From: Elusimicrobiota bacterium
GTDB taxonomy: Bacteria; Elusimicrobiota; Elusimicrobia; UBA1565
Direction: 5' to 3'
NCBI GenBank assembly: GCA_043819795.1
Contig: JBDREN010000141.1
Location: 1-52,565, forward strand
DNA length: 52,565 nucleotides
Made by a program: the position numbers and the translations under genes
Notes under the pieces: generated by a model
What the model was told of the DNA's origin: nothing
Database searches by the model: none
The model's input: the letters and a program-made list of their open reading frames with translations, nothing else
Shown: piece by piece, positions 6,001 to 52,565 of the stretch
Layout: each line of letters starts with the position of its first letter
How positions within the stretch are numbered: the stretch's first letter is position 1

Positions 6001-9000
6001 GCTCCACCTCGACCTTGACGAACCCTCCGGCCGCCGCCGCGAGCACCTACACGGCGGTCTCCATAAGCTCGATGAGCGTCGCGTGGGGCCCGGGCGGGAA
6101 CCTCGTGGACGTGACGACCTACACGGTGGTGCTGAGCACGGGCTCCGGCTATCCCAACGCGTTCTCGGGCAACGTCTCGGCGAGCACCGCGCCGGCGGGC
6201 GGCTCACCGGCCGCCACGCTCACGGGCCTGGCCCCCAACGCCACCTATCACCTCTTCGTCGAGGCCATCAACCACAACGGGGTCGGGGGCGGCGTCATCG
6301 CCTTGGGCTCCACATCCACGTTGGCCAACGCGCTCTTGAGCGCCGCCACCACCTTCAGCGCGGTGGCCGCCGACGGCTTCGGCGTGAGCTGGGACGCGAG
6401 CAGCAACCCCTTGGGCCTCTCCAGCTACACGCTCCAGGCATCCACGGCCGCGGACTTCAACGCGGGCGCGACCGACGCCGTCTCCCTCGCCACCGCGCCG
6501 GCCGCCGGGCCCTTCGCCACCCTCACCGCTTTGAGCGCCAATACCACCTACTACGTCCGCGCCCAGGCCTTCAACCACAACGGGATCCCGACGGCGTTCG
6601 CGGAGCTGGGCTCCACCTCGACTTTGGCCGCGGCGCCGGCCACGGCGGTGACCACCTTCACGGTGGTCGCCTCCACGACGATGACCGTGGCCTGGGAGTC
6701 GGGCGGCAACCCCGTGGACGTGACGACCTACACGGTGGTGCTGAGCACGGGCTCCGGCTATCCCAACGCGTTCTCGGGCAACGTGTCGGAGAGCACGGCG
6801 CCCGCGGGCTCATCGCCGACCGCCACCCTCGCGGGGCTGGAGCCCAACACGACCTATCAGCTCTTCGTCGAGGCGCTCAACCACAACGGCTTGGGCAGCG
6901 GCGTCTCGGCCCTGGGCTCCACCGCGACCCTGGCGAACGCCCCCTTGAGCGCGGCCGCCACATTCAGCGCGGTGACGACAAGCGGCTTCGGCGTGAGCTG
7001 GGACGGCAACGCGAACCCCATGGCCCTGACCGCCTACGCGCTCGAGGTCTCGACGGCCCCCGACTTCGACGCGGGGGCCGCGGACGCCGTCACCCTCGCC
7101 ACCGCCCCGGCGGCCGGGCCTTTCGCCACCGTGACGGGGCTCGGCGCCAACGCGACCTATTACGCGCGCGTGCGCGCCGTCAACCATAACGCCGTCCCCA
7201 CCGCCTACGCGCAGCTGGGGTCGACCTGGACCGTGGTGGCCGCGCCGGTCTCCGCGGACCCGACCGGGATCAGCACCTCGACGATCACCCCCCAGTGGGG
7301 CGCCGGGGGCAACTCCCCGGTCACGCGCTACACCGTCGAGATATCGACCGACGACTTCGCCACGGTGAACGCCTCGAGCGTGACCGTCGCCACGTCCGCC
7401 GTGTTCTCCGGACTGCTGCCCGACACGACCTACTATTTCCGGGTGCTGGCCGCCGGAAACGACGGCCGGCTCACGGCCTACACGCCCCTGCCCTCGGCCA
7501 TCACGTATCAGGCCCTGCCGGAGTCCCTGGAGGCGGCCTTCGCCGCGGTCGAGACGAGCAGCATCAGCGTCAACTGGACCGGCGGGGCCCCGGGCGCGAC
7601 CTACGAGGCCGAGATCTCGACCGACGGTTTCGCGTCGGTCAACCTGAGTTCGAGCACGCTGAACCTCTCCGCGCTCTTCGGGGCCGGGGGGGCCGGAGAC
7701 GATCTCGCCCCGAACACCACCTACCACTTCCGGGTGCGCACCGTGGGCGCCGGAGGCCCGGGACCCTTCGTGAACCTCGGCTCGACGGTCACCCTGGCGA
7801 GCATCCCCGGCGCGATATCCATCACGACAGTGGCGTCCACGACCGTCGGCGTGGACTGGCTGCCGAACGGGAACCCGGAGCCGGGCACGCAGTACGAGCT
7901 CTGGCGGGACACGGAGGCGGCCTTCGGCCAGCCGCTCAAGACGCTGGTCGCCGCCTCCGCACACCTCGCGGAGGGACTCTCCAAGGAAACGACCTACTAC
8001 TTCAAGGCGCGCGCCAGGAACCACACCGGCCTCTTCAGCGCCTTCAACGCCGCGGTGTCCACGTGGACGCTGATCGCGCCGCCCGGGCAGCCGGGAACGC
8101 CGGCCGGCGCGACGCTCGGCGTATCGTCGATCGCCTGGACCTGGGCGGCGGCCGTCGACGTCACGATCGGCTACCGGGTATTCTCGGCCTCGAGCCCCGA
8201 GAGCCTCGCGGGCAGCTCCGCCGGCACGACCTTCTACCACACGGGCCTCGCCACCAACACCGCCTACGGGATCGTCGTCGGAGGCGTCAACGCGGGCGGC
8301 GTGGGGCCGCTCTCGGCCGCCGCGACGGTCTACACGCTGGCCGTCCCGCCGGCCGGGACCGCGGCCAGCGCCGTCGAGGCCACCAGCGCGACGCTCACCT
8401 GGTCGCTGAACACCAACCCGGCCGCGACCGTGGCGGAGCTGGAGCGCTCCACCGACAACGCGGTCTTCGCCGGCGTGTTCACGGGCGGCGAAACCAGCTA
8501 CACGGACTACGGCCTGCTCGGCTGCACCACGTACTACTACCGGGCCAGGAACCGGAACGGGGACGGCGTTCCGACCGGCTACGACGCCGCGGTCCAGATC
8601 ATGACCGAGGGCTCCACGCCCATAGCGCCCTCGGGGCTCTCCGCCGCGAGCCTGGCGGGAGGCCGGATCGCCCTCTTCTGGAACATGTCGCCGTCGGAGC
8701 TGGTCACCGAATACCGGATCTACTACGACTCCGGGACCGGGACGGTGGACTACGCGACGCCCCTGGCGACCGTCAGCTCCACGGTGACCGCATACACGAC
8801 CGACGTCCTGGTCTCCAGCCCCGCGTACACCTTCTCCCTGCGCGCTTACAACCGTTGCGGGGTGGAGGAGCCGAACACCATCGTGGTCGCCGCGGCGGCG
8901 TCCGAGGTGGTCCTGCAGGAACTCCGAGCCGCCGTCAAGGTGCCGGCGAGCGGACAACGGGTCAAGGGCAACCGGGTGACGGTCAAGGCCGAGCTGACCC

Positions 9001-10052
9001 TCGGCGATCCGGGCCAGACCAAGCAGGTCCTCTTCGAGTACAAGGCCTCCACCGGCTCCTCATGGACCGCCATCGCGGCCGCCGACCCCAACCATCCCAA
9101 CCCGGACCCGGCGTACCCGTACTTCGTCCACTGGGACGCGGACTCTTTGGCCGCGACCTCCTACGACCTCCGGGCCGTGGCCACCGACACCTCGGACAAC
9201 GCGGACGCCGGCCCGCCGAGCGTGACGATCGCCGTCGTGGACACCGCGGACTTCGACATCAGCGAAAGCCTGGTCGCCGGAAAGATCGTGAAAAGCCAGG
9301 TGGTCAACAACGGAGCGCCGAGCTCCGTCGAGGCGGGGGACGCGGATTCTCCCCAGCTCACGACGCTGGCCATCCCGGCCGGCGCCCTGGACAGCTCCAC
9401 GCTGACCGTGACCATGGCCAACAATCCGGCGACGACCCCGGCCGCCTCCTCGGACCTGGACCCCGCGGGCGTGAGCGTGGAGATCACCCTCTCCAACGGC
9501 CAGAGCCAGCTGGCGGGCGGGCGGACCGCCACGTTGACGCTCGCCTACCCGGACGCCGACAACGACGGGGTCGTGGACGGGACGGCCCTGCGGGCCGATG
9601 ATCTGGACATCTATGCCTACGACGCCGTGGCCGGCGAGTGGGCCAAGGGCTTCGCCTCGACGGTGGACCTCGCGAGCCGCACGATCGCGGGGAACACCCC
9701 CCATCTCAGCTTCTTCGCGCTCTTCGCGCTGAAGCCATCTAGCCCCACCGCGGTGAGGGTCTATCCCGTCCCCTTCAAGCCCAACAGCGGCAGCGCCGAC
9801 GACGGCGTCGCCTACAGTCCGGGAGACTCCGACTCCGGGATCATCTTCGACAACCTGCCCGACCAGGCCACGATCGAGATCTACACGGTCACCGGGCAGC
9901 GGGTGGCGCGGTCCGCGGCCGGGACGGCCGGCAGAGTGCAGTGGGACGTGAAGAACGAGAGCGGCCGGGACGTCGCATCGGGCGGCTACATCGCCCTCAT
10001 CAAGAGCCCCAGCCAGAATAATGTCGTCAAAAAGCTTTTGATAATACGATGA
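3..10052 (+). CDS. Giant secreted/surface protein, 5'-partial: parallel beta-helix (NosD/PbH1) repeats, G8-like domain, duplicated ~355-aa module, many FN3 repeats, C-terminal FlgD-Ig/T9SS-like sorting domain
   Basis: The frame is open from base 3, so the true start lies upstream of the window. Motifs: Asn-ladder repeats (GIxLxxSSxNTLxxNxxxSN); G8-like SVQSGDWSDNLTW...TVSAGHTVTVD; FN3 motifs (LxPNTTYYFRV); C-terminus VRVYPVPFKP...IEIYTVTGQRV...WDVKNESGRDVASGGY...KKLLIIR. Confidence 0.9.
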   Translation: MAENNVSSNAAHGIHLAGAAGNTLSANNAFGNTTAGIYLEGSSGNDIKLNHAYSNSDVGVHLFNGSYFNVVEGNYAYAQPSHGFWLQSGCDHNTLASNNAYVFGDTGILLDASASNTLAFNESYSGTRGVHLRQSSDDNLLASNEAGSNTAAGISLDDSSNGTLIDNLSHDNGSYGLLIKTGASGSTLVGGGLGYDSAGAADPNTQSELHIDDVSSGSLTLKGVRINPAVGISTDGFNREGNYLLSYNQDFDTGTVRLWGDLTLSGDTLTLDYATQLYAATATASKLMRGTGHSASVSSTNDTTAVSQIITIEHRGGQWHVDGSSSGADMASFTGSQANLTVPASDTQFILDFTEGGSAVEGDRVDFALIAASQDQNARKRLLFGPAADGFHEGRSKLAVAADAGVVLQGAETIHTLVDMLPGGTYYTFVDSGAFTAMFSSFTNMDPGGIQLSGSAGVFISSSVFDYLGFAAGTNAYITARDLASDIWLDNVGFLLSRSSHGFDSMYNVRVEGTDSSLRWRLKTGGTPLWGEDFDYDPNAKVAWINCSAIASVQSGDWSDNLTWDQAFEPTECNATTVSAGHTVTVDRTDAIAAMTTVRGTLSFSRVAHSSLTIVGGDVTVEPGGHLDLGTEASPIPAGVRAHLVLALGQTAGQYGLIVQDGGDFTVRGATKTPYSTLDPSDSLLTDENTLTLSEDPAQLGWAVGDVITIGPSQGSGPGSTEKRTIAGIAGSIITVDVSFSKIHYGTATIDIADLTRNVLVRSSGTDTGSDTAYIRNLATNATSFNLSYGEFAYLGNNAALKYGIAFGGGARGQVSSSTVRNGYTGIYMFQSDGNTLASNTLYSNTYAGIHLDDTCTGITLTKNNSHSNANGLLVTNRSSGNTLSANNVYSNSTDGIKLSDAFDNTLSGNRSHSNEPNGILVIFSSSNTLNGNDIYANLGFGIYLAEDANRNTLEANHSYANLNSGVYLNAASHNTLIGNDIHSNIGAGLYITDHGDENLVVGNDLYSNSSDGMYLDVALDNTLIANDSYDNASYGVYVYDARGNTLIAGSLGYDASGAALPDAMGEIYLDMTPSEDLVLKGVRVNPAAGISTGGFNKAGNRLISYNQNFDTGTLRMWGDYLVSGSTLTLDYSTRLYASTATAPKLMRGIGHSAALVTTEDATAVSQLIAIEYRGGQWHVDGSVSGADMRTFTGSPAGLAVPSSTPQFTLDFTAGGSPLEGDRVDFALIASSRDEDVQKRLLFGPSASTFRGGKSKLSVASDGGIVLRGIEGTPTLMDRLDASSTYYTLVDSGAFTAEHSSMTNMDPDGLQLSGSGGVLIATSTFDFMGVAPGTNAYITARDLSSAATFYGLAFGVSRSTGGAYSAYCVRVEGVDSGLAWIMRKWSGPLGGEDYDQDAGGKVAWSPFAPQAGTPAIAAVYSSSVTLQWGDSLNDPGALYNLEASTASDFTGAVLSSATPNLTDTVSGLAPNATYYLRVSAVDIATSPYTSLGSTVTLSPAPTPLADSFTEVSMTSVTVAWTALPAGSAESYVLEASSTDFDGTGVLHSSSTPDIPLSTLVLGLGTAMEPNTTYYFRVAGVNRNGVASYSLLGATSTLAGRPGTVAPAFTEVFNSSVTVQWAPLPASPFTATAEGYILEASSTDFGGLAPGGIVHSSRTPNVGIDVLTLEGLQPNTTHYFRVGSLNWNGSPNYTALGATATFADAPAAGSAVFYPVASTAFGVSWTAGGNPLVITTYTVEASTASDFNTGATDAVSLATAPAGGPHATFTGLSVNTTYYLRAQAVNHYGFVTAFVDLESTATLTVPPATAVTTFTAVASTSMTAVWERNGNPADVTTYTVVLSTSPAYPNAFSGTVSADTAPAGASPAATLAGLVPNTTYHLFIQAVNHNGVGGGFASLGSTATLASAPLSAAATFSEVTAGGFGVSWGSGGNPLAASTYTVQASTAADFNAGATDAVSLSTVPAAGPFATFTGLSVNTTYYVRVTAVNHNGVGTAYTELGSTSTLTNPPAAAASTYTAVSISSMSVAWGPGGNLVDVTTYTVVLSTGSGYPNAFSGNVSASTAPAGGSPAATLTGLAPNATYHLFVEAINHNGVGGGVIALGSTSTLANALLSAATTFSAVAADGFGVSWDASSNPLGLSSYTLQASTAADFNAGATDAVSLATAPAAGPFATLTALSANTTYYVRAQAFNHNGIPTAFAELGSTSTLAAAPATAVTTFTVVASTTMTVAWESGGNPVDVTTYTVVLSTGSGYPNAFSGNVSESTAPAGSSPTATLAGLEPNTTYQLFVEALNHNGLGSGVSALGSTATLANAPLSAAATFSAVTTSGFGVSWDGNANPMALTAYALEVSTAPDFDAGAADAVTLATAPAAGPFATVTGLGANATYYARVRAVNHNAVPTAYAQLGSTWTVVAAPVSADPTGISTSTITPQWGAGGNSPVTRYTVEISTDDFATVNASSVTVATSAVFSGLLPDTTYYFRVLAAGNDGRLTAYTPLPSAITYQALPESLEAAFAAVETSSISVNWTGGAPGATYEAEISTDGFASVNLSSSTLNLSALFGAGGAGDDLAPNTTYHFRVRTVGAGGPGPFVNLGSTVTLASIPGAISITTVASTTVGVDWLPNGNPEPGTQYELWRDTEAAFGQPLKTLVAASAHLAEGLSKETTYYFKARARNHTGLFSAFNAAVSTWTLIAPPGQPGTPAGATLGVSSIAWTWAAAVDVTIGYRVFSASSPESLAGSSAGTTFYHTGLATNTAYGIVVGGVNAGGVGPLSAAATVYTLAVPPAGTAASAVEATSATLTWSLNTNPAATVAELERSTDNAVFAGVFTGGETSYTDYGLLGCTTYYYRARNRNGDGVPTGYDAAVQIMTEGSTPIAPSGLSAASLAGGRIALFWNMSPSELVTEYRIYYDSGTGTVDYATPLATVSSTVTAYTTDVLVSSPAYTFSLRAYNRCGVEEPNTIVVAAAASEVVLQELRAAVKVPASGQRVKGNRVTVKAELTLGDPGQTKQVLFEYKASTGSSWTAIAAADPNHPNPDPAYPYFVHWDADSLAATSYDLRAVATDTSDNADAGPPSVTIAVVDTADFDISESLVAGKIVKSQVVNNGAPSSVEAGDADSPQLTTLAIPAGALDSSTLTVTMANNPATTPAASSDLDPAGVSVEITLSNGQSQLAGGRTATLTLAYPDADNDGVVDGTALRADDLDIYAYDAVAGEWAKGFASTVDLASRTIAGNTPHLSFFALFALKPSSPTAVRVYPVPFKPNSGSADDGVAYSPGDSDSGIIFDNLPDQATIEIYTVTGQRVARSAAGTAGRVQWDVKNESGRDVASGGYIALIKSPSQNNVVKKLLIIR
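570..4215 (+). repeat. Internal duplication of a ~355-aa module (approx. 570-1635 and 3150-4215) in the giant protein
   Basis: The segment LGYD...LKGVR(I/V)NPAxGISTxGFN...SYNQxFDTGT...KLMRGxGHSA...GGQWHVDGS...EGDRVDFALIA...VDSGAFTA...GEDxD...KVAW occurs twice, about 2.58 kb apart. Confidence 0.9.
5110..7235 (+). repeat. Tandem two-FN3-domain unit with 609-bp (203-aa) period, arranged (AB)3A
   Basis: GTGACGACCTACACGGTGGTGCTGAGCACG recurs at 5502, 6111 and 6720. A-type (FGVSW...DFNAGATDAVSL) and B-type (YTVVLST..YPNAFSG) domains alternate. Confidence 0.9.
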
Positions 10053-10138
10053 AGCTCCGGATGAGGATCTTGGGTTTTCTTGAAAATCGCGGAAGCGATT
10101 TTCAAGGAAACCCGCTTCGCGAGACTGAACGCCACGGG

Positions 10139-11527
10139 ATGGCGACGGCGAACCGCGCGGTGACGCTGGCCTTGGCCCTGCTCCTCTTGAGCGGAGGGCG
10201 CCCCTGCGAGGCGGCCTCGGCAGGAGCCGAGCCGTTCAATTTCCTCTTCCTGGACGCGAACGCCCGCGCCGTGGGGATGGGCGGCGCCTACACGGCGATG
10301 GCCGCGGACGCCAACGCCCTGCTCTACAACCCCGCGGGCCTGGGCAGGATGGACGCTCACGAACTGACGTTCATGCACAACGAGTACTTCCAGGGCATCT
10401 TCCAGGACTACGTGGGCTTCGGCGCCCGCCAGGGATGGGGCGTGAGCCTGAACTACCTGAGTTTCGGGAATGTCCCAAGAACGACGATATCCAACCCCAC
10501 GGGCGCCGGTCTGGGCACAGCCGGGCTCACGGACCTGGCCTTCGGAGCGGGCTACGGCCGCTCCTTCCAGGAGCGGTGGAGCCTGGGCGCGGGCATCAAG
10601 TTCATCCGAGAATCCATCGACGACATCTCGACGCAGGGCCACGCCCTCGATCTCGGCGCCATGTACGATCCCCCCGCCTTCACGGGCCTGACCGTGGGCA
10701 TGGCGATCCAGAACATCGGGCCGACCGTCACGTTCCAGCACGCTACGGAGAACCTCCCGCTGAACGTACGGATGGGAGCCGCCTACGACTTCTCCTTGGG
10801 GGGCCGGAAGAACAAGCTGTCTTTGGACCTGAGCAAGGAGCGCAGCGAGGACGTGCTGGTCGCCCTCGGAGCCGAGATCCGGCTCTATCCCCTCATGCCC
10901 CTGCGGGCGGGCTTCAATACCCGCAACGACGCCGGCCCCGGGGTCAGCGTGGGAGTCGGATGGGTCCACAGGGACCTCATGATCGACTACGCCTTCGTCC
11001 CCTTCGGCGACCTCGGCAACGCCCACCGCATCAGCGCTACCGTGCGATGGGACGTCACGGCCGCCGCGCCCGCGGCCACGATGGCGCCCGTCGTGAAAAG
11101 AGAGACGCCGCAGGCCGGAGAGACGCCCGAGTCGCATCTCGACTACGCCGACCGCTTCATCGAGGTGGGCATGCTGGAGGCGGCCGCCAAGGAGCTCAAG
11201 GCCGCCGCCGACCTGCTCGATCCCGACGACCGGCTGTGGATCCGCTATCTCGCGCGCAGCGGGCACATCGCCCTCCTCGAAGACGATATCCCGAGAGCCA
11301 AGCGCTCGTTCCAGCTGGCCGTGGAACTGGCCGTCCGGCTGGGGCTGAAGGGGCCCCGCGTCGCCAACGCGTATGCGGGCTTAGGTTTGTGCCTGCTCAA
11401 GGAAGGCTCACTCGAGCAAGCCCGGATGTACTTCCAGAAAGCCATCGAGGCCGGTCCCTCGCCCCAGACGCGCGAAGCCCTGCAACGCCAGCTCAAGAAG
11501 CTCCGGGAGCGCCTGCAGGAGCGTTGA
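10139..11527 (+). CDS. PorV/PorQ (UPF0164)-family outer-membrane beta-barrel with C-terminal TPR extension
   Basis: Signal peptide follows the ATG at 10139. Motifs FLFLDANARAVGMGGAYTAMAADANALLYNPAGL and DYAFVPFGDLGNAHRIS; TPR-like AYAGLGLCLLKEGSLEQARMYFQKAIE. Confidence 0.85.
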   Translation: MATANRAVTLALALLLLSGGRPCEAASAGAEPFNFLFLDANARAVGMGGAYTAMAADANALLYNPAGLGRMDAHELTFMHNEYFQGIFQDYVGFGARQGWGVSLNYLSFGNVPRTTISNPTGAGLGTAGLTDLAFGAGYGRSFQERWSLGAGIKFIRESIDDISTQGHALDLGAMYDPPAFTGLTVGMAIQNIGPTVTFQHATENLPLNVRMGAAYDFSLGGRKNKLSLDLSKERSEDVLVALGAEIRLYPLMPLRAGFNTRNDAGPGVSVGVGWVHRDLMIDYAFVPFGDLGNAHRISATVRWDVTAAAPAATMAPVVKRETPQAGETPESHLDYADRFIEVGMLEAAAKELKAAADLLDPDDRLWIRYLARSGHIALLEDDIPRAKRSFQLAVELAVRLGLKGPRVANAYAGLGLCLLKEGSLEQARMYFQKAIEAGPSPQTREALQRQLKKLRERLQER

Positions 11528-12257: not shown

Positions 12258-12347
12258 GACGTTCGAACGTCAGTTACTCAAAGCCACGGTGCCAGGCACC
12301 GTTTCGGTGCCTGGCACCGGTTGCGGTTACTCAAAGAACTCAATGCC
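12258..12347. repeat. REP-like composite palindromic element, copy 1
   Basis: CGGTGCCAGGCACCG-TTT-CGGTGCCTGGCACCG (12287-12319), flanked by AGTTACTCAAAG (12272) and GTTACTCAAAGAACTCAATGCC (12326). Lies between convergent genes. Confidence 0.75.
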
Positions 12348-41042: not shown

Positions 41043-41286
41043 CACGACAGATTGTAGCGAAAAAAGACGCCGCGCCCAAAGAATACTTGCCGGGGAGGCG
41101 TATTGTATCCTTAATATCGGACCCGTAAAGGGGGATGATGATGGACCGCAATAAAAAGACGCTCTGACGCCCGGAAGCTCTTGCCTAAAGTCACATCCCG
41201 AAGTCATTGATTTCCCTGGTATAACCGCCTAAACTTAATACAGTCCCCACCGGAACATGCTGATTAAAATCTGCAGAGGTACCCCT

Positions 41287-43869
41287 ATGATGGCCGCGGG
41301 AAGGGAAGCCCCCCCGTCCGGCAAGGCCGGGTTCACTATCGTCGAGCTCATGATGTCCGTCTCCATCCTTTCGATCGGCGCGCTGGCGTTCGCCACCGCC
41401 TTCGGGAGCATGAGCAAGGCGATCCAGAAGGCCAAGATCCGGACCATCTCAGCCGGCCCTCTGGTCTCGGAGAAGATGGAGACGCTCAAGCGGACGCCCT
41501 ACTACCGCCTGCTCGCATCCACCGTGACCGCGACCGCCTCGGAGTCGGGCCTGGACGGCTTCGAGTACGACGCCGGGGCCTATCCCTCCGAGACGATCAC
41601 GGTCGGGGACTATCGATTCACCCGGCGCGTGCTCATCGAGAAGGTCGAGCTCGTCGGCGACAGCTTCGCGCCGGTCCCCGCCGGCGCGCCCGACACCGGG
41701 ATCAAGCGCATCACGGTCTACACGCTCTGGCAGGAAAATGGAGACTGGTACAAACACCGGGCCTCCAGCCTCTACTCCAACCCCAACCCGGCGGCCCTCG
41801 ACAACAGCGTCGGCGGCGACATCCGGGACGACGGGGGAAGCCCCCTCTCGGACGTCGAGGTGGTCGCGCTGCAGAACGCGAGGTGCGTTTCGCTGTCGGG
41901 ATCCGCCGGAGACTACTCCCTCGCGCTGCCGGCCGGCGACTACACCCTGCGCGCCAGCAAGCCCGGCTACCACTCCGCCTACAGCTCCCCGTTCACCGTG
42001 GGCTCCAACGAGGCTGTGACCCGGGACTTCACGCTGGCCGCCATCGCCGCCGGCGCGGTCCGGGGCACGGCGTGGATCAACGATCACCTCGTGCTCAGCC
42101 AGGTGGTGGGCAGCACCCCCACGGCCGGCTTCTCGACGGAGTACGTCGAAATCTTCAATCCCACCACCTATACCTGGACCGTCAACGGCGAGATCGGCCT
42201 CAGGTTCCAAAGGGACCCCGCCTCGGACCCGGTGAAGATCGACATCGACATCGACTATCGCTCGGACGAGATCCGGCCGGGAGGGTACTTCCTCTTCGCC
42301 AACACCGGCACCGTCCACGTGCTCGGCTCCTCCGTGGCGGCCGACGCGGTGTGGGACACGGCCCCGTTCGGGGACAACGACGCCGACTTCCCGTATTTCA
42401 ACGCCGCCGGGGGCGTCTACAACATCATCCCGATAAACGCCGACGGCCCGGAAGGCGAAGGCGCGCTCGAGCTCTACCGGATATCCGACGGCGCCGCCCT
42501 GGACCGGTTCGGATGGTCCGGCAACGGCTGCAGCCACAAACCGGGCTTCTACGAGACCTCGCCTCTCGCCGAATGCACGGGCCTCCAGATCCAGGAGCAG
42601 TACTACCGGTTCTCGAGCACCTCCGGATACGACTCCTCATTCGGCCCGGCCTACGACTCCGGCCACAACAACCGGGATTGGAGGGCCGTCAACCCTCTCC
42701 ACTACCGCCCGAGCAACAGCTCCGGCGCGGCCGTGCCCGTCATCGCCGGGGTCCCGGCCTCGGGGGTCGTGGTCTCCGCCGACGACGGGCTCTCCAGCTC
42801 CACGACGACCTTCGAGACCGGGAGCCCGCCCTACGTCGAGTTCGAGCTGGCCTCCGTGGCCACCGGCACCTGGCAGGTGACCCTGACGAGCGGGTCCCAT
42901 CATTCCGCGATCGGCGGCGTGGTGGTGACGCAGGGAGGGACCGCCCGGATCCCCAACAGCGCGACCGCCCCGTCCTGGACCTCCGCCGGATACACGGTGG
43001 CCCTTCTGAGCTCCACCATAACCACGGGGTTCATCGCCGGGCAGGTGAGCGACGCCGGCCTGAGCGCGCTTTCCGGCATCACGGTGCGCACCCCCTGGGG
43101 CACGACGGTGACGGGAGGGGACGGGACGTACGTGCTCAGCCTGACGCCCGGCGAGTACGCGGTGGATGCCAACCCGTCCGGCCACCCCGGATACGACCAG
43201 GATTACGTCTCGGTGTCCAGCGGCGGCTGGAGCGTGCACCTCGGCCAGGTCACCCGGGGCGTGGACTTCACGCTCTCGGCAGCCGGGGCCGTCAGCGGAT
43301 GGGCCACGATGAACGGGGTCGACCCGCTGCGCAGCGTGTCGGTGCTCGCGTTCCGGTCCGGCGTCGAGATGGGCACCGCCATAACCGGCGACGATGGGAG
43401 CTTCGCCATCATCGGACTCTCCACCGGCTCCTACTCCGTGGTCCCGCAGACCGACACCGGGGAGAGCGTGAGCCCCTCGAGCGCGAGCGTGACGCTCTCG
43501 ACGCCCGGCGAGACGGTCTGGTCCGCCACGTTCACGCTGTCCGGCGCCATGGGCACGATCACCGGGACGGTGGAGCTGGGCGGCGTGCCCATCGAAACGG
43601 GCGTCGTCATCATGGCGACCACCGGCACGATAAGCGGCAGCGACCCTCCCTCCTTCGGCTCCGCTTTGCGCTCGGGCGGCGTGCTCTACTACACCGCCTC
43701 GAGCCGGCCCGGCGGGACCTACTCCCTGGAGGTCCGGGGCGGGGCGGGAATCTACATCGTCTACGGTTGGTACAGCACGCGCCACGACCAGTACCCGACC
43801 ACGATCATGGCCAGCGGCTTGACCACCGTGAACGCGGGGGACACCTCGACCGTGGACCTGGATTGGTAG
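41287..43869 (+). CDS. Large prepilin-type protein with carboxypeptidase-regulatory-like beta-sandwich repeats and a lamin-tail-like domain
   Basis: Class III signal GFTIVELMMSVSIL; repeats such as GDYSLALPAGDYTLRASKPGY; LTD-like EYVEIFNPT...IRPGGYFLF. Confidence 0.8.
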   Translation: MMAAGREAPPSGKAGFTIVELMMSVSILSIGALAFATAFGSMSKAIQKAKIRTISAGPLVSEKMETLKRTPYYRLLASTVTATASESGLDGFEYDAGAYPSETITVGDYRFTRRVLIEKVELVGDSFAPVPAGAPDTGIKRITVYTLWQENGDWYKHRASSLYSNPNPAALDNSVGGDIRDDGGSPLSDVEVVALQNARCVSLSGSAGDYSLALPAGDYTLRASKPGYHSAYSSPFTVGSNEAVTRDFTLAAIAAGAVRGTAWINDHLVLSQVVGSTPTAGFSTEYVEIFNPTTYTWTVNGEIGLRFQRDPASDPVKIDIDIDYRSDEIRPGGYFLFANTGTVHVLGSSVAADAVWDTAPFGDNDADFPYFNAAGGVYNIIPINADGPEGEGALELYRISDGAALDRFGWSGNGCSHKPGFYETSPLAECTGLQIQEQYYRFSSTSGYDSSFGPAYDSGHNNRDWRAVNPLHYRPSNSSGAAVPVIAGVPASGVVVSADDGLSSSTTTFETGSPPYVEFELASVATGTWQVTLTSGSHHSAIGGVVVTQGGTARIPNSATAPSWTSAGYTVALLSSTITTGFIAGQVSDAGLSALSGITVRTPWGTTVTGGDGTYVLSLTPGEYAVDANPSGHPGYDQDYVSVSSGGWSVHLGQVTRGVDFTLSAAGAVSGWATMNGVDPLRSVSVLAFRSGVEMGTAITGDDGSFAIIGLSTGSYSVVPQTDTGESVSPSSASVTLSTPGETVWSATFTLSGAMGTITGTVELGGVPIETGVVIMATTGTISGSDPPSFGSALRSGGVLYYTASSRPGGTYSLEVRGGAGIYIVYGWYSTRHDQYPTTIMASGLTTVNAGDTSTVDLDW

Positions 43870-43873
43870 GCTT

Positions 43874-44371
43874 ATGCGCACTGGACGAAAGACCGCGGGC
43901 TACACGTTGACCGAGATGATGGCGGTGATGAGCATCGTGGGCATCCTGAGCACGGTGGCGCCCCAGCTCTTCATCCAGGTGTCCCGCTTCTTCCGCCAGA
44001 GCCAGGCCCGCACGGAGATCCAGCGCGACTCGCGGACCGTCTTCGCCCTGCTGGGACGCTCCCTGCGCCAAGCCCAGGCCTCCACGATCACCGTGGACCA
44101 CCTCTGGGCCCAGCCGCCCTTCTCGCGCATCACCTTCACGAAGAAGGACGGCGCCGTCATGAGCTTCTATCAGAAGGGGACCGAGCTCTACCAGGTGGAC
44201 GGCGGCACCAAGTCCATCGCGAAGAACCTGCGCTACCTCGCCTTCACCTTCCCCCACACCGACGACGAGAACCTGCTCTCGGTCGCCCTCACCCTGGAGA
44301 AGGCCACCTACCAGGGCCAGACCAAGGCGCTGCAGCTCTCGATCGAGCCGGTCCGCGTCCGAAATGAGTAG
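43874..44371 (+). CDS. Prepilin-type minor pilin/pseudopilin (PilW/GspJ-like)
   Basis: AGYTLTEMMAVMSIVGIL prepilin motif with Glu at +5. Confidence 0.85.
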   Translation: MRTGRKTAGYTLTEMMAVMSIVGILSTVAPQLFIQVSRFFRQSQARTEIQRDSRTVFALLGRSLRQAQASTITVDHLWAQPPFSRITFTKKDGAVMSFYQKGTELYQVDGGTKSIAKNLRYLAFTFPHTDDENLLSVALTLEKATYQGQTKALQLSIEPVRVRNE

Positions 44372-44413
44372 AAGCCTCTAGCGCAGCTTCAAGGGATTTG
44401 GCAGTATCTCAAG

Positions 44414-45817
44414 ATGTCGGGCACGCCAGATCCCTTAACACCCCGCGGGAAAACACACGGCGAAAAAGGACAGCTGTTGGTCGGGGCCCTGCTGATGCTT
44501 CTGGTGCTGGCCATCCTGACCCCGGCCCTCGTATTCCTGCTAAAGAACGAGTCGAGGATGGCCGCCAGGAAAAGGGAGTCCACGGTCGCCTTCTACGCGG
44601 CCGAGGCCGGGGTCGAACGCGCGCTCTGGATGCTGCGCACGAGCACCTCCACCTTCGACGAGATCCTTGGAGGGAGCGTCCCCTCCGGCTATCTGCGCGA
44701 CGCGACGTACGCGGACATCAACGCGGGGACCTACGTCGTCCTTCTTTCGAGCACCGGCGTGAGCAAGGAGATCCGCGTCGAATCCACGGGCAGAGACGAC
44801 AGTGCCAGAGAGTTAAGGACGATCGAGGTGCTCCTGAAGAAGGACATCGTCCCCGCCGTCATCTTCGCCGCTACCGTTAGGATCAAGAGGTCCGCCCAGG
44901 TGTTCTGGGGGCCGATCATGGCCACGACGAGCGTCGACGTTCAGAACTCCGCCGACCAGCTCTACCCCCGGAAGATGTCCCGCGGCCGCATCACCGCCGG
45001 GGACAACTACCCGGACCGCGACACCGACCCCTCGGCGCCCAATACCGACCGCCGGGAATGGTGGAGCTATGACTCCTACCCGGTGCCGGACGCGCCCGCC
45101 ATCGACCTGGACTACTACCGCACCCAGGCACAGATCTCCCCCAACTATTACACGAACGGCGATATGCGCTGGAACAAGGAGAAGGACAACACCGAGATGA
45201 TACGGTTCGTCGAGGGGAACTGCCAGCTGGAGGGCGATATGCACATGCGCGGCTGGCTGTTCTGCACGGGGGACGTCACCATCGACGGAAAGTGCTACGA
45301 AAAAGACGACGGCCAATACGGCGACTACACGGTCGCCGCCGAGGACATCCCCCAGAAGGCACACCTGGAGTACCGGAAGAACACCCCCAGCCAGGGGATG
45401 AACTGCCGCGGCTACGACGTCGACTGCGACGCGGGCGGCCCGGAAGCGACCAACGACGGGGACTACGCCGACGGCGACGACGCGGACGGCAACAGCGGGT
45501 GCTGCTACCAGTTCCCGGGGGACAACGGCCGCGACGGGGAGTACGCGGACTTCCGCTTCAAGTACGGCGCCGCCGGCTGCGACTCGTCCTGCCAGGGCGG
45601 CCCGAACGCGGCGGTCTGCTTCAAGGGCCTGGTCTACGCCGGAAGGGACTGCCACATCGACACATCCGCCGTGATCCACGGCGTCGTCGTATGCCAGGGC
45701 GACTTCGAAGCCGACCACGACGCCAACGTCTTCTACGACGAGAGCCTGGACATAAAGATGTCCGTGACCAGCTTCAACCAGACCTCCTGGCGGGAGCTCA
45801 TCGCGAAAACGTTCTGA
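44414..45817 (+). CDS. PilX/GspK-like minor pilin with a Cys/Asp-rich C-terminal domain
   Basis: KG-QLLVGALLMLLVLAIL (no Glu+5); AFYAAEAGVERAL; 12 Cys in the C-terminal half. Confidence 0.75.
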   Translation: MSGTPDPLTPRGKTHGEKGQLLVGALLMLLVLAILTPALVFLLKNESRMAARKRESTVAFYAAEAGVERALWMLRTSTSTFDEILGGSVPSGYLRDATYADINAGTYVVLLSSTGVSKEIRVESTGRDDSARELRTIEVLLKKDIVPAVIFAATVRIKRSAQVFWGPIMATTSVDVQNSADQLYPRKMSRGRITAGDNYPDRDTDPSAPNTDRREWWSYDSYPVPDAPAIDLDYYRTQAQISPNYYTNGDMRWNKEKDNTEMIRFVEGNCQLEGDMHMRGWLFCTGDVTIDGKCYEKDDGQYGDYTVAAEDIPQKAHLEYRKNTPSQGMNCRGYDVDCDAGGPEATNDGDYADGDDADGNSGCCYQFPGDNGRDGEYADFRFKYGAAGCDSSCQGGPNAAVCFKGLVYAGRDCHIDTSAVIHGVVVCQGDFEADHDANVFYDESLDIKMSVTSFNQTSWRELIAKTF

Positions 45818-47481: not shown

Positions 47482-47550
47482 GAGTTACTCAATAGGCGGT
47501 ACCAGGTACCCGGATGTGAGTTACTCAAAGAACTCAATAAACTCAATGCC
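47482..47550. repeat. REP-like composite element, copy 2
   Basis: GAGTTACTCAAT (47482), GGTACCAGGTACC (47498-47510), GAGTTACTCAAAGAACTCAAT (47518-47538). Confidence 0.7.
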
Positions 47551-47578: not shown

Positions 47579-49936
47579 TCAGCGGGGGCGGCCGCAGCGG
47601 AAGCCTATGTAGTACTTCCAATGCGAGGGGGAGACGAGCGCGCCGAGGGCGAACACGCCGGCTCCGGTGCCCTCGCCCCAGAAGCCTCCGCGGATCACGG
47701 CCGTGACCATCCCGGTCACCCAGTCGAGCGAAACCGGCGAGCCGTACTGCGTGTAGACCTGGCCCCCGACGTTCTTCATGACGTCGTTGTTGTAGCCGCT
47801 GTAGGCGCCGTCCCACTCCACGATGGCGTTGTCCGTCGAGTTGGAGACCCCGGCCGCGGCCGTGCCCCACTCCCCGACGTATTCCCACAAGGAGCCGATC
47901 ATGTTCTCGGCCCCGTAGGCGGACAGGCAGTTCGTCCCGGTCCCCGTGACGCCGGGGCCGGTGTTCGATGACGCCGTCATGCAGTCGGGCGCGGTGCCGC
48001 TGGCCCCGGGATCCGGCGTGCCCGCGGCCGCGGCCTGCCAGATGCGGTTGGGCAGGAGCTCCTTGTTCACGTTCGTGCACGCGATGTTCGCCTGGAACCA
48101 TGTGATTTGGCGCGCGGGCGTGACCCCGCTGACGCTGCGCGCGTAGATGGGGTTGGCCGCCCCGGCGGGGCAGTCCGTGCCGTTGTCGCTGCAGGGATAG
48201 TCGTCGGTGCTGGCCCCGTACTGCGTCCCGCCGGTCGGCGTGGCCCACACCGAGCCCTCGTACTTGTCCACGCACCAGGCGCCGACCGCCACCATGTCGG
48301 ACGGGCAGGCTCTGAGACCGTCGGCGTAGGCCTTGGTCGCCGCGTCCTGATTCGCCGTCGGGTCGGCGAGGTTCGTGAGCTTATTGCCGCCTATATCCAG
48401 GTCCGCGTCTATATTGATCTCCGAGGACTCTATACTGCCTCCCAGGACGGAAACGCTACCCTGCAAAGCCGCGTTCGCGATGGACGTCGCCGGAAGCTCG
48501 ATCGAGCTCCCGACCCGGAACGCGTCCACGGTCCCAGAGGAGACGTAGAACGTGGCTCCCGTCTGGAGGGTTTCCTGGAGCTTGATGCCGGCGGCCTCCG
48601 TGATGTAGCCGGCGTCGTTGGCGAGCAGGGAAACGTTCTCCCCCTCTTCCATCACGGCGTCGTCCAGCCTGGACGTGGGGAACCTCCCGGAGGCCACGGC
48701 CGCGGTCGAGACCTCCACCCTGTCGTCGGAGAACTTGCCCGAGGAGACGGCCGCGGTGGAGAGCGACACCTTCGCGTCCGTCACGGCGCCGGCGCCGATC
48801 GCGTCGGCGCCCACGGCTCCGGGCGCGAGCGACTGGGCGAGCACGTCGGCGGGCAAGGTGCCGGCGCCGATGTCCGCCGTTTCGATCGCGTCGTCGGGGA
48901 GATCGATCGCGGTCTCGACCCTGAGGTCCTGGACCGTCCCCGAAGAAACGTAGAAGGTGGCGCCCGCCTGCAGGCTGTCCTGGATCTTGACGGCCGCGCT
49001 CTGCGCGATGTAGCCGGCGTCGTTGGCGAGCAAGGAAACGGCCTCCCCCTCCACCATCACCGCGGCCTCGAGCTTGCTCGCCGATATTCCCGCTGACGAA
49101 TTCACGTCCGCGTCCGCGATCGTGTCGTCCGCGATCTCCGCGGACTCCACTTGCTGGCCCATCAGGGAGACCGAGGAGGCGTCCAGGTTCGCCAGCGGGA
49201 CGAGCCCGCCCCCGTCGAGCAGGAGCAGCCTGCCCGCCAAGTTGAAGGTATTCCCCTGCAGCGTCACCGACGAGGCCTCCAGATCGATCTCGGCGACGCT
49301 GCCGACGGCGGTCACCTCGAACTGGGCCGCGTCGAAGTCGAGCGCGCCGGTGGGATTCACCTTGTCCGCCCCGCCCTCCCGGCTCACGATGGAGCCCGCC
49401 GAGTCGTCGAAGCCGTCGGCGAAGTCCGCCGGCATGTTCTTGATCTGCGTCCAGTCCACCGCGTTCGTCGAGAGGTTCAAGGTGGACGGCTGGGACGGGT
49501 CTTTCTCCAGGACCGAAAGGGGGACGACCGCGTCGGAGGAAAGGGCCTGGCTCACCAGCGCGAAGGGGGCGGAGACGATCTCCTCGGCGGGGGAAAGGGT
49601 CACCGCGTCGACGGCGATCTCCATGAACCGGGGCCCGGCGAAGGTGCCCGTGGAGAGGTGGGCCGGCGTGCCGGTCTCCAGCACCACGCTGAAAAGCCCC
49701 TCGGTCACGAGGATGTTGTGGGTCTCGCTGGTCCAGACGAGCGTCCCGCCCGAGGCGGCGTCGTACATCTTGAACACGAAACTCTTGATCCCGCTGGCCG
49801 GCTCCCCGCTCTCCTCGAGCCTGCCCTGGAAATTGATGCGCATGGGGGCCGCCGCGAAGGCCTCGATCACGCCTGGGCCGCTCGCCAGGAACCAGAAGAG
49901 CATGACGCCGTACGCCGCAAAAAGGATCTTTCTCAT
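47579..49936 (-). CDS. Secreted fibre-like protein with a C-terminal FGE-sulfatase/C-type-lectin-fold domain
   Basis: Signal peptide; INFQGRL...FKMYDAASGG..VW N-domain; fibre repeats (EIADDTIADAD, GAVTDAKV, duplicated LLANDAGYI...LQxGATFYVSSGTV); neck-like NKLTNLADPTANQDAATKAY; CVDKYE...NMIGSLWEY...RGGFW...IGFRC. Confidence 0.8.
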   Translation of the reverse strand: MRKILFAAYGVMLFWFLASGPGVIEAFAAAPMRINFQGRLEESGEPASGIKSFVFKMYDAASGGTLVWTSETHNILVTEGLFSVVLETGTPAHLSTGTFAGPRFMEIAVDAVTLSPAEEIVSAPFALVSQALSSDAVVPLSVLEKDPSQPSTLNLSTNAVDWTQIKNMPADFADGFDDSAGSIVSREGGADKVNPTGALDFDAAQFEVTAVGSVAEIDLEASSVTLQGNTFNLAGRLLLLDGGGLVPLANLDASSVSLMGQQVESAEIADDTIADADVNSSAGISASKLEAAVMVEGEAVSLLANDAGYIAQSAAVKIQDSLQAGATFYVSSGTVQDLRVETAIDLPDDAIETADIGAGTLPADVLAQSLAPGAVGADAIGAGAVTDAKVSLSTAAVSSGKFSDDRVEVSTAAVASGRFPTSRLDDAVMEEGENVSLLANDAGYITEAAGIKLQETLQTGATFYVSSGTVDAFRVGSSIELPATSIANAALQGSVSVLGGSIESSEINIDADLDIGGNKLTNLADPTANQDAATKAYADGLRACPSDMVAVGAWCVDKYEGSVWATPTGGTQYGASTDDYPCSDNGTDCPAGAANPIYARSVSGVTPARQITWFQANIACTNVNKELLPNRIWQAAAAGTPDPGASGTAPDCMTASSNTGPGVTGTGTNCLSAYGAENMIGSLWEYVGEWGTAAAGVSNSTDNAIVEWDGAYSGYNNDVMKNVGGQVYTQYGSPVSLDWVTGMVTAVIRGGFWGEGTGAGVFALGALVSPSHWKYYIGFRCGRPR

Positions 49937-49948
49937 GGCTCTCGCCTC

Positions 49949-50491
49949 CTACTTGATGACCATCAGCTTTCCGCTCTTGACCGCGCCCGCGGCCTTGATG
50001 ACGTAGAGATACACTCCGCTGGCCAGGCCTTCTCCACGCTCGTTGGTGACGTTCCACTCGACGGAGTTTCCCGCGCCCGACTTGATCAAAGTCTTGACCA
50101 GCCGTCCCGAGATGGTATAGACCCTGACCTCCGCGTCCCGAGTCAGGCCGGTGAACGTGATCTTGGCGTGGCCCCGGTACGGCCTGAAGGGTACCGGGAA
50201 GGCATGGGCGCCCGAAAGGTCATCGGCCGCGGACACGACCGGCGCGGCCGCGGAGGCGAACCCGCCCTGCATCGCGAACTGGCCGCCCGACATCCGCGAG
50301 CCGCCTCCCCACTGGCCCGTGCCCGAAGAGGCGATCCGGAAACGGCCCTGCGAAGGCCGGCTACCCCCTCCGCTGGTGCCCGCGATCAAGGGGATGCGGA
50401 AGCTCCCCCCGGTCAACACGGCGGCGCACAGAGAGCCAAGCGCCGTGAGGAACGCCGCCGCCAGCAGGAGCCCAGCCTTACGGAAAGTCAT
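49949..50491 (-). CDS. Small secreted protein: Gly-rich three-repeat segment plus FlgD-Ig/T9SS-like sorting domain
   Basis: Signal peptide; GGSFRI / QGRFRI / GGQFAM; then AFPVPFRP...VYTISGRLV...WNVTNERGEGLASGVYLY...KLMVIK. Confidence 0.8.
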   Translation of the reverse strand: MTFRKAGLLLAAAFLTALGSLCAAVLTGGSFRIPLIAGTSGGGSRPSQGRFRIASSGTGQWGGGSRMSGGQFAMQGGFASAAAPVVSAADDLSGAHAFPVPFRPYRGHAKITFTGLTRDAEVRVYTISGRLVKTLIKSGAGNSVEWNVTNERGEGLASGVYLYVIKAAGAVKSGKLMVIK

Positions 50492-52137
50492 CTCCCCGCC
50501 TCCTCCAGTCTCTTGAGCGCCTTCTCGGCCGCGGCCCGGACACGGCCGTCCTCGTCCTTCAAAGCCCCCTCAAGCGCCCTGATGGCGCTCAGGCCCCCGA
50601 AATATCCCAGCACGGTGGCGGCGTTCATCCGCACGTCCGGATGCCCGTCCCGCAGCATCCCTGTCAAAGGACGCACCGCCCGCCTGTCGCGCAGCAGGCC
50701 CAGGGCGATGATGGCTCCCAGACGCGCGTCCTTGTCCCGGTCCTTCAGGAGCTCGAGCACGGGCCCCACGGCGCTCTTGACGCCCAGCTTGCCCAGGGCC
50801 ATGGCCGCATGCGCCCGGACGCTGGCGTATTCGTCTTTCAGGCTCGCGACAAGGAGCTTCACCGCGCGCCCGCCGCCCATCTCGCCCAGCCCCTCCACCG
50901 CCTCGTACCGCTCGTACTCGTCGCCGTTCTCCAGCGCCCGCGCAAAGTACGCGAACGTCCCCGGCGCGGACGCGGCCTCAGCTTCGGCCGCCCACCTCTC
51001 CGCCGGCGGCGCGGCGGCAGTTTCCCCCGGAGAGGAAGCGGCGGCCCGCCCCCTCGGCGCAGGCTCGGATTCGGCGGCCGGTCTCCTCCCCGCCGGCCGG
51101 ACGGCCGCTCGTTTCGGGGCCGGCCGGCGCCTGCTCCCGGCTCCGCGGACCGGCTCCGCCTCCTCCCCGCGAGCGAACCGCATCAAGATGCCGAACCGAT
51201 GGACCGTGTCCAGGTCGCCGGAATCGACGAACGCGTAGTCCACCTCGAAGTCCGCGGGCAGAAGCCTTCCCATCCTCAGCCCCACCCCGAACGTCAGCCC
51301 GGAGCCCACGTCCCTGTAGGACTCATACCCCGCCCTGATCGCGAGCACGTCGTAGAGCCGGTTCTCGACGCCGAGCGCCACGTAGGGATCCCCGTCCGCG
51401 GGAAAGTGCCCCTCGATGGAGCACGCGAACGCGTACCTCTCGCCGGGCTCGATCCCATAGGACGCTCCCGCCTTCCCCTTGAGCGGAAGGGGAAATCCTT
51501 CCTCGACGAACTTCATCTTCGTCCCGACCACGTTGTCGGCCCCCAGGCCGATCCTGACGCCGCGCCACGCCGGCTTGAGCAACAACCCCAAGTCCGCGCC
51601 GAAGCCCGCCGCCTTTTCGGTGTCCAGGCGCTCTTGGATATACTTCAGGTTGACCCCCCAAAGGATCTCTCGCAGCCAGGCGCCCCGAAGCTCCGCCCCC
51701 CTGGCGTACGCCATGTTGACGGCGAGATCGGACGCGGAAACGGAGCCCATGGGCTCGTCGTTCTCGTCATACGCGTCGAAACCGTCCACGGAAAGGGAGT
51801 TCAGGCCGATCCCGAACGTTCCCCACCGGGGATGGGGATAGGCGTACGCCGCCCACTCCTGTGTGACCCCCTCGAAATATCGGTTGTGCGTGAAGGCGGC
51901 CTGCTGCGACCCGAGCTGGGCCAAGCCCGCGGGATTGTAGGCGATGGCGTTGACGTCGTCGGCCAGGGCGGCGAAGGCGCCCCCCAGGCTCGCGGGCCGG
52001 GCGGCCAGGGGGATGTTCAGGAAGTCGGCGCCGCTCGTGCCCGGACCCCCGCAGAAGCCCAAGGGGACCAACAGGAAATACGCCATGCCCGTGATGATCG
52101 GGACGGCCGCCCGCCCGCGCCGGACCTTCGCTCTCAT
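50488..52137 (-). CDS. PorV/PorQ-family beta-barrel fused to HEAT/PBS-lyase repeats
   Basis: GADFLNIPLAARPASLGGAF...YNPAGL; DYAFVDSGDLDTVHRFG; Ala/Pro linker; LKDExxxVRxxAAxALG repeats. Start taken at ATG 52137. Confidence 0.85.
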   Translation of the reverse strand: MRAKVRRGRAAVPIITGMAYFLLVPLGFCGGPGTSGADFLNIPLAARPASLGGAFAALADDVNAIAYNPAGLAQLGSQQAAFTHNRYFEGVTQEWAAYAYPHPRWGTFGIGLNSLSVDGFDAYDENDEPMGSVSASDLAVNMAYARGAELRGAWLREILWGVNLKYIQERLDTEKAAGFGADLGLLLKPAWRGVRIGLGADNVVGTKMKFVEEGFPLPLKGKAGASYGIEPGERYAFACSIEGHFPADGDPYVALGVENRLYDVLAIRAGYESYRDVGSGLTFGVGLRMGRLLPADFEVDYAFVDSGDLDTVHRFGILMRFARGEEAEPVRGAGSRRRPAPKRAAVRPAGRRPAAESEPAPRGRAAASSPGETAAAPPAERWAAEAEAASAPGTFAYFARALENGDEYERYEAVEGLGEMGGGRAVKLLVASLKDEYASVRAHAAMALGKLGVKSAVGPVLELLKDRDKDARLGAIIALGLLRDRRAVRPLTGMLRDGHPDVRMNAATVLGYFGGLSAIRALEGALKDEDGRVRAAAEKALKRLEEAGR

Positions 52138-52317
52138 CAGTCCACCAAGCAAGAAACGCCCCTTTCCCCTCCGGCCCCGCCCGTCCAAACGCGGAAGGTC
52201 TTGCGCAAAGGATAGAGACAATGTGTTAGGAAATCAAGGATTTTGCCGCCATCGCAGAAATCCCATTAATATATTGGCTTTTTATCGCCTCCTAGAGACG
52301 GCCAGGCGGCGTCACTC

Positions 52318-52420
52318 ATTGAGTTCTTTGAGTAACTCGCGGCCGGGTGCCAGGCACCGAGATGCCAGGCACCGAGATGCGGCCGGGTGCCAGGCACCGA
52401 GATTTAAGGCACCGAGATTT
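52318..52420. repeat. REP-like composite element, copy 3, with tandem expansion
   Basis: ATTGAGTTCTTTGAGTAACTC (reverse complement of the motif at 47518); GGTGCCAGGCACC at 52346 and 52386; AGGCACCGAGAT four times. Confidence 0.8.
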
Positions 52421-52565
52421 AGTTAACAAAGTGGATCTTCTCGGAATAGAGTGGGTATCTTAAGTATGGCACCATTGGGAGTCATGTCGTAGATAAACAA
52501 AGGGCATCCCTCCTTCTTGGTACAAGGATGTTGTCGAGACACCTTGGCCAAGAGGGGGAGGGATG

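Follow-up and report, generated by a model that had tools for sequence, protein, structure and literature searches.

How might a secreted fibre that carries no sorting domain of its own be held at a bacterial surface with its tip left free? The question is raised by three minus-strand genes in the window analysed here, a stretch of 52,565 nucleotides that constitutes contig C141 of an Elusimicrobiota genome (4.99 Mb, 90% complete). They encode a PorV/PorQ-family barrel with C-terminal HEAT repeats (52137-50488, 549 residues), a small exported protein that we call the adaptor (50491-49949, 180 residues), and a fibre (49936-47579, 785 residues). An earlier note on this DNA had proposed that the three form a display module, in which the adaptor grips a trimer of the fibre and docks on a dedicated barrel of the kind that a type IX secretion system (T9SS) uses. 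The closest homologues come from sources named as Elusimicrobia. The tight operon linkage that the note described can be read from the gene coordinates: the barrel gene shares its last 4 bp with the start of the adaptor gene (50488-50491), and 12 bp (49937-49948), in which GGAGG occurs, separate the adaptor from the fibre. We consider the whole reading, a clamp-and-barrel mount for the fibre, to be probable; binding of the fibre by the adaptor peptide, taken alone, is highly probable, with a predicted complex among the grounds.

That complex was modelled from three copies of fibre residues 29-146 and one copy of adaptor residues 22-85. The interface score, ipSAE, was 0.81, 0.81 and 0.82 for the three fibre copies versus 0.00 for the best of three controls; the mark applied to this score is attained by 116 of 157 complexes with solved structures and by 2 of 215 mismatched pairs, a calibration that is rough for a model with four chains and its own alignments. 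Contacts agree by at least 95% between runs, the peptide reaches a confidence (pLDDT) of 81-82 in the complex versus 31 with an unrelated chain, and the trimer of fibre N-terminal domains (N-domains) stands at 91-92 in the presence of the peptide. Each of the three N-domain copies meets the peptide with the same surface, comprising residues 34-44 (the INFQGRLEESG strand), 78-85 and 105-125, and the best-placed contacts join adaptor F72 to fibre L40, V109, V112 and L114. The N-domain has no close solved relative: Foldseek returned no match in the PDB at E<=0.001, and the best VIA-align result (Z 6.7, root-mean-square deviation 3.1, 87 aligned residues) falls among generic Ig-like sandwiches. 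Recall of a similar complex by the predictor is therefore less likely. In essence, a single adaptor would use its three-repeat peptide to hold all three N-domains of a trimeric fibre, each repeat placing its aromatic residue in an equivalent pocket next to the FQGRL strand, and the peptide is predicted to fold only upon binding. The earlier note had put forward the modelling of three fibre N-domains with one adaptor as a check, and a confident interface that reaches every copy is what emerged. Its claim that three repeats bind three N-domains gains from this interface and from the co-occurrence described below, and stands as a model-based prediction.

What, then, is the adaptor? It comprises a signal peptide (judged by eye, as for the fibre), a glycine-rich peptide of 57 residues (residues 24-80, 50252-50422), which is the predicted clamp on the fibre base and carries F31, F51 and F72, and a type A-like C-terminal sorting domain (residues 88-180, 49952-50230). 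The sorting domain belongs to the T9SS type A family by its match to TIGR04183 (29.8 bits, cut-off 23), while Pfam PF18962 gives 20.1 bits, under its cut-off of 27. Across 37 aligned homologues the peptide resolves into three repeats of the consensus (L/M/A)-(S/T)-G-G-x-(F/L/Y)-x-(V/L/I), and the earlier description of the small protein as three short repeats followed by a sorting domain is thus borne out by alignment and profile alike. No Pfam family matches the peptide, and a search of the Atlas with it produced only leads under its bar.

If the peptide serves the fibre, the two should travel together. This was examined in 54 loci fetched by a sorting-domain pattern, independently of peptide and fibre, and with a first peptide profile built from proteins without regard to their context. 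The profile matched 35 of the 54 loci, and a gene with the fibre N-domain lay beside 34 of these 35, compared with 5 of the remaining 19; those five show the peptide by a wider profile or by eye. Regrouped post hoc on wider profiles and inspection by eye, the loci include 42 with a peptide, 39 of which have the fibre, versus none of the 12 that are free of it. Each of the three misses (L036, L049 and L054) is no more than about 500 bases from the end of its contig, and 5 of the 12 peptide-free loci have truncated N-termini. The co-occurrence across genomes that the earlier note had proposed to look for is accordingly present in these loci. Thirty-seven of the 39 loci with peptide and fibre also encode a barrel.

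Beyond Elusimicrobiota the partnership appears to persist with a change of anchor. The comparison draws on 79 metagenome loci obtained by using the N-domain of a Phycisphaerales protein as query (the best 80 of 455 matches). A peptide profile derived from Elusimicrobiota only matched small exported proteins neighbouring the fibre in 33 of the 79 loci, including 20 of the 33 that are fully flanked; after one iteration of the profile the counts rose to 36 of 79 and 21 of 33. On the window's own genome the same profile matches 2 of 41,446 frames, both of them true adaptors. Neither a barrel nor an Elusimicrobiota-type sorting domain was found in any of the 79 foreign loci with profiles derived from Elusimicrobiota. 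There, the peptide is followed by a dockerin (PF00404 above cut-off in two of seven proteins scanned and weak in one) or by a YLP box, which NF050076 detects in one protein at 14 of the 15 bits required and which is visible by eye in many. The YLP box is a feature we take to be linked to Chloroflexota, an assumption echoed by one Atlas row below the bar. Because the peptide stays beside fibres while the C-terminal domain differs between phyla, the peptide is the constant partner and the anchor the part that varies. Judged by these sequence comparisons, the module is broader than first proposed, with the peptide rather than the barrel as the fibre's constant companion.

The fibre itself has the make-up that the earlier note assigned to it, namely a signal peptide, an FQGRL N-domain, a lectin-fold tip at the C-terminus, and no sorting domain, none having been matched in family-profile scans. 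The N-domain occupies residues 29-134 (49535-49852), with INFQGRL at residues 34-40, and AlphaFold2 models it as an Ig-like beta-sandwich in which about residues 1-90 of 137 are confident. It is followed by a stalk (48317-49534) with an internal duplication (about residues 285-340 and 425-483) and a neck resembling phage tail fibres (486-540), the stalk's PHROG tail-fibre matches having E values of 9e-7 to 5e-5. The tip (residues 541-785, 47582-48316) has the FGE-sulfatase/CLec fold, as judged from Atlas features (0.96) and an Atlas model match (TM 0.81). The Pfam E value is 0.057 for the window fibre and 2.3e-7 for a 59% identical homologue at locus L006; a structure model of the tip was poor (pLDDT 31, from a two-row alignment), and the fold call consequently depends on Atlas and Pfam evidence. 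Searching the PDB by sequence gave nothing meaningful for tip, N-domain or peptide. The tip is the exchangeable part: fibre homologues share the N-domain and differ in their C-terminal domains, and paralogues in this genome end, by eye, in S74-like domains.

The family to which the N-domain belongs is large, numbering 73,877 representatives at E<=0.001 (clusters at 50% identity). It is present in 99 of the 201 Elusimicrobiota genomes searched, and has members in Saccharibacteria (59-70 bits) and Phycisphaerales and none among 50,697 phage records. Its closest described counterpart is the N-domain of the mosaic adhesive trimer (MAT) fibres of Bdellovibrio bacteriovorus, for which the portion of the report available states that the surface partner awaits identification (Caulton et al. 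2024, PMC10769870). The MAT N-domain profile, NF053851, gives the window fibre 23.8 bits, below its cut-off of 60, and is matched at E<=0.01 by 35 of 39 aligned N-domain homologues; the two domains appear to be homologous but distant. Insofar as the available text describes MAT fibres, the window fibre shares their architecture of signal peptide, conserved beta-rich N-domain, phage-like mosaic stalk and swappable tip. It differs in scoring far below the MAT cut-off (23.8 versus 60 bits), in its phylum, in its CLec tip, and in having a candidate partner encoded next door. The N-domain trimer is confident in the model, and the window fibre would, like MAT, be a homotrimer at the surface. Three proteins (P0049, P0050 and P0065) carry three tandem FQGRL N-domains on one chain, followed by Ig-like and propeller domains, and are likely, from their sequences, to be pseudo-trimers that mimic the trimer.

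CLec tips of the Mtd type, known from phages and diversity-generating retroelements, share the tip's fold, the tip matching Atlas models annotated with PF21916 (mtd_2nd) at TM 0.66. They differ in that here the assembly contains no template for the 3' end of the tip and the N-domain is missing from all of the phage records. The fibre gene as a target of a diversity-generating retroelement was rejected, no long copy of its last 322 bases occurring elsewhere in the 90%-complete assembly; four reverse-transcriptase matches lie elsewhere in it. In the same genome, three tandem short fibres with collagen-like stalks (G000:C96:51823-54885) follow a giant sorting-domain gene that starts off the contig.

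How would the adaptor, in turn, be held? The barrel gene matches NF033709, the PorV/PorQ family, at 142.5 bits (cut-off 90), and HEAT_2 (PF13646) at 95 bits, which upholds its identification as a PorV-HEAT barrel; it falls below the cut-offs of both PorV proper (NF033710, 32.2 of 250 bits) and PorQ proper (NF033711, 98.6 of 220 bits). The barrel domain spans residues 34-321 (51175-52038). The HEAT-repeat tail, at about residues 400-546 (50500-50940), would lie in the periplasm. It is not a core part of the module, as had been supposed, for it is present in 16 of 36 trio barrels from the fetched loci and missing from a second trio in the same genome (C37:25299-30084), where the genes stand in a different order. 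In a FastTree phylogeny of 72 barrels (midpoint root), 36 of the 38 trio barrels form one clade with support of 0.988; the clade includes both the C141 and C37 barrels and none of the 34 other barrels, and the trio barrels of L017 and L038 fall outside. The clade is kept through gene-order changes and a duplication. For the claim that the barrel is dedicated to this adaptor, such cohesion is favourable, but it documents shared inheritance rather than contact.

SprA passes folded proteins and PorV binds sorting domains. A SprA-like gene is present (G000:C134:12856-18525, 1889 residues), a 1165-residue part of which scores 159 bits against a cut-off of 200. SprA-like matches at E<=0.001, below cut-off, occur in 178 of the 201 Elusimicrobiota genomes, and the SprA_N profile PF14349 has no match in this genome or in any control. 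For the PorU protease, NF033707 is matched only by its C-terminal sorting-domain part in this incomplete genome. On the preferred reading, the three chains would cross the inner membrane by Sec and the adaptor would leave through the SprA-like channel by virtue of its sorting domain, with the fibre riding out on it, as we prefer, or meeting it at the surface. The sorting domain would likely dock on the barrel encoded next door and, no PorU protease having been found, would be retained and stay bound there, so that the fibre is held on the outer membrane and its lectin-fold tip is free.

By analogy, the nearest precedent for such lasting anchorage would be type B cargo on PorP-like barrels: in the Bacteroidota T9SS, as the available part of the source has it, cargo with a type B C-terminal domain stays bound to a cognate, co-encoded PorP/SprF-like barrel (PMC9143113). 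To the extent that this source covers them, the Bacteroidota systems (type B with PorP/SprF, and PorV/PorQ) resemble the present one in pairing a sorting domain with a cognate co-encoded barrel, a pairing presumed to hold here, and in the SprA-like channel found in the genome. They differ in that here a type A-like sorting domain sits on a separate adaptor instead of on the displayed protein, the barrel is of the PorV/PorQ family with an optional HEAT tail, and the searches turned up neither PorL/M/N nor the protease domain of PorU.

Several observations weigh against the mount as drawn. The earlier note had pointed to SprA and PorKLMN as machinery to search for; the first yielded the SprA-like gene, under cut-off, whereas GldL, GldM and GldN (PorL/M/N) have no match in the 90%-complete genome and the best match to GldK (PorK) reaches 49.9 bits against a cut-off of 350. 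Since the control genomes gave no true positive, the blanks for PorL/M/N are weak, and neither they nor the PorK and PorU results establish absence; a SprA-like channel without these components hints at a T9SS-like channel with another motor. The Fisher p value of 5e-8 for the co-occurrence of peptide and fibre is overstated, because related loci are not independent. A barrel also stands in 10 of the 12 peptide-free loci, so adjacency alone is not specific. At L052, peptide and fibre occur with no barrel match within 6 kb; at L054, on a contig edge, the gene that follows the peptide has a different N-terminus; and a fibre on C15 of the same genome follows a large sorting-domain protein with no visible peptide (for the fibres on C96 and C81, contig ends put the partners beyond judgement). 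Finally, no gene for the peptide lies near the fibre in 12 of the 33 foreign loci that are well flanked.

Could the adaptor be an export tag and folding template only, clamping the trimer and taking it through the SprA-like channel by way of the barrel, with the complex then released to the medium or to vesicles? PorV of Bacteroidota acts as a shuttle rather than as a final anchor, and the predicted interface and the linkage fit this explanation equally well. Release is harder to reconcile with the foreign loci, where the peptide is joined to a dockerin or YLP box with no barrel match, these being modules for attachment or sorting and not channel tags, and with the failure to find a PorU protease domain that would process the cargo. 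MAT fibres, moreover, are surface-located according to the available text (PMC10769870). We regard release as unlikely. Another explanation retains the clamp and gives up the dedicated barrel: the sorting domain would use any PorV-family barrel or some other anchor, and the fibre may exit otherwise, for instance through a type II/IV pilus-type machine. The genome holds about 28 PorV-family genes (32 matches), barrels flank peptide-free cargo too, five peptide-fibre pairs (L052, L164, L169, L170 and L172) have no barrel match nearby, and a pilin-like cassette lies 2-6 kb from the trio. Against such promiscuity, 36 of 38 trio barrels remain one clade despite rearranged gene order and duplication, and the barrel gene runs 4 bp into the adaptor gene; we think it quite improbable. 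That surface-protein genes merely cluster, the glycine-rich peptide being a linker, would suit a short, low-complexity peptide that lacks a Pfam family and is missing beside 12 of 33 well-flanked foreign fibres, but is very hard to credit given no fibre at any of the 12 peptide-free sorting-domain loci, a peptide that stays next to fibres as the C-terminal domain joined to it differs from phylum to phylum, a model score of 0.81 versus 0.00, and the oddity of a linker that begins the mature chain.

A further question is whether the peptide is related to a known pilus protein. PamT is the predicted tip pilin of the Pam pilus of Candidate Phyla Radiation (CPR) bacteria; in the portion of the preprint available it is described as a truncated Ig domain only, and a tail fibre-like gene is conserved beside the pam operon (PMC13278184). 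Three foreign adaptors match the start of NF058579, the NCBI profile for PamT, at E values of 0.003-0.03. In the 201 Elusimicrobiota genomes this profile gives 17 matches in 15 genomes, all at its N-terminal part and none above its cut-off of 240 bits. A fibre N-domain gene lies within about 6.5 kb of 15 of the 17, versus about 0.3 expected from gene density, a generous null given that surface genes cluster; the two without a nearby fibre are L160 and L173, the latter the weakest match. Once the signal peptides are taken off, positions 25-76 of NF058579 continue to be matched by 14 aligned segments (best E 8.5e-6), a result that is circular insofar as the segments were chosen by the same profile. 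Their alignment matches that of the adaptors over 56 columns (probability 64%, E 6e-5), and a profile made from them finds 11 frames in nine foreign loci that the adaptor profile also matches. Conversely, none of 37 window-type adaptors matches the PamT profile, and the 14-segment profile has no match at E<0.05 in L001-L054. Viral contigs, plasmids and a profile search for longer proteins supplied no PamT sequence or CPR locus, and the PamT link accordingly rests on the NCBI profile. Kinship of the peptide and PamT is offered as a hypothesis drawn from sequence. As far as the available preprint text allows a comparison, the two are alike in that positions 25-76 of NF058579 match the same kind of three-repeat peptide, a fibre-like gene adjoins the pam operon, and Saccharibacteria have fibres with the N-domain. 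They differ in that PamT continues into a truncated Ig donor-strand acceptor and the adaptor here into a sorting domain.

It is conceivable, and we take the idea seriously while leaning slightly against it, that the peptide is a universal plug for trimeric fibres of the FQGRL/MAT type. A single chain would break the threefold symmetry and hand the fibre to whichever anchor a lineage employs: sorting domain and barrel, dockerin, YLP box, giant adhesins, an Rhs protein, or PamT in CPR bacteria. Were this so, the tip of the Pam pilus would bear a fibre trimer for host recognition, and the anchor that MAT fibres of Bdellovibrio lack so far would be a protein with the peptide. In the open-access literature searched, in which subscription journals are largely not covered, neither the adaptor nor the trio is described, and no account of T9SS parts in Elusimicrobiota was found; each part is of a known kind, while the predicted 3:1 clamp with a swappable anchor is not described there. 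The FQGRL N-domain defines one of the larger unnamed surface-protein families, and the mount would supply its missing holder and would let a protein that has no sorting domain make use of T9SS-type parts. A peptide of about 60 residues with an interface predicted to the residue makes the question of the MAT anchor testable with two small recombinant pieces, and suggests an explanation, open to test, of how CPR epibionts might recognise a host by their Pam pilus.

The peptide and the sorting domain also occur in other settings. The peptide opens a giant exported protein of more than 6349 residues with FN3 repeats, directly downstream of a fibre (L136:2161-2337, C82; PamT-profile E 8.8e-6); a single-sequence search with this C82 peptide found matches in 2 of the 201 Elusimicrobiota genomes. 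By eye it also opens a giant exported LamG protein directly downstream of a fibre (L137:4883-5095, C69; profile E about 5). At L164:6453-12341 it begins a 1949-residue Rhs-repeat protein (Ig, DUF6531, RHS), whose gene directly follows that of a short fibre, which might represent a fibre aiming an Rhs protein. At L170:6308-11523 it is found on a 381-residue protein with no sorting domain or family match, the C-terminal end of which looks pilin-like by eye, and the adjoining fibre holds an intein-like insertion, again by eye. Four loci (L041, L044, L046 and L051) encode tiny proteins with a signal peptide and a sorting domain only, each adjoining a barrel and lacking a fibre.

Elsewhere in the window, at 3-11527, a truncated giant of more than 3349 residues (5' end missing; G8, beta-helix, FN3 and sorting domain) is followed by its own PorV-TPR barrel, and a layout of one cargo and one barrel recurs across the genome (32 barrel and 33 sorting-domain matches). 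Nearer the trio, a three-gene pilin-like cassette (41257-45817) encodes a prepilin of 870 residues that has carboxypeptidase-regulatory and lamin-tail-like domains, together with a second, small prepilin and a protein resembling PilX. A phage tail-fibre gene of a prophage was considered for the fibre and set aside, the neighbours being housekeeping and surface genes and the N-domain missing from the phage collection. A prophage or mobile-island reading of the operon was likewise dropped: the flanking inverted repeats belong to a genome-wide family resembling repetitive extragenic palindromes (REPs), and GC content is ordinary (67-70% in the operon, 67% in the genome). Intergenic copies of this REP-like repeat lie at 47497-47549, 52316-52374 and 12287-12345, two of them flanking the operon in inverted orientation by chance, and at least 20 contigs carry the repeat. 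The last stretch of the window (52433-52565) has an exact duplicate at C80:34020-34152, which is accompanied at a distance of 1.4 kb by an inverted copy of 25 bases; the stretch is probably an insertion-sequence end at which the contig breaks.

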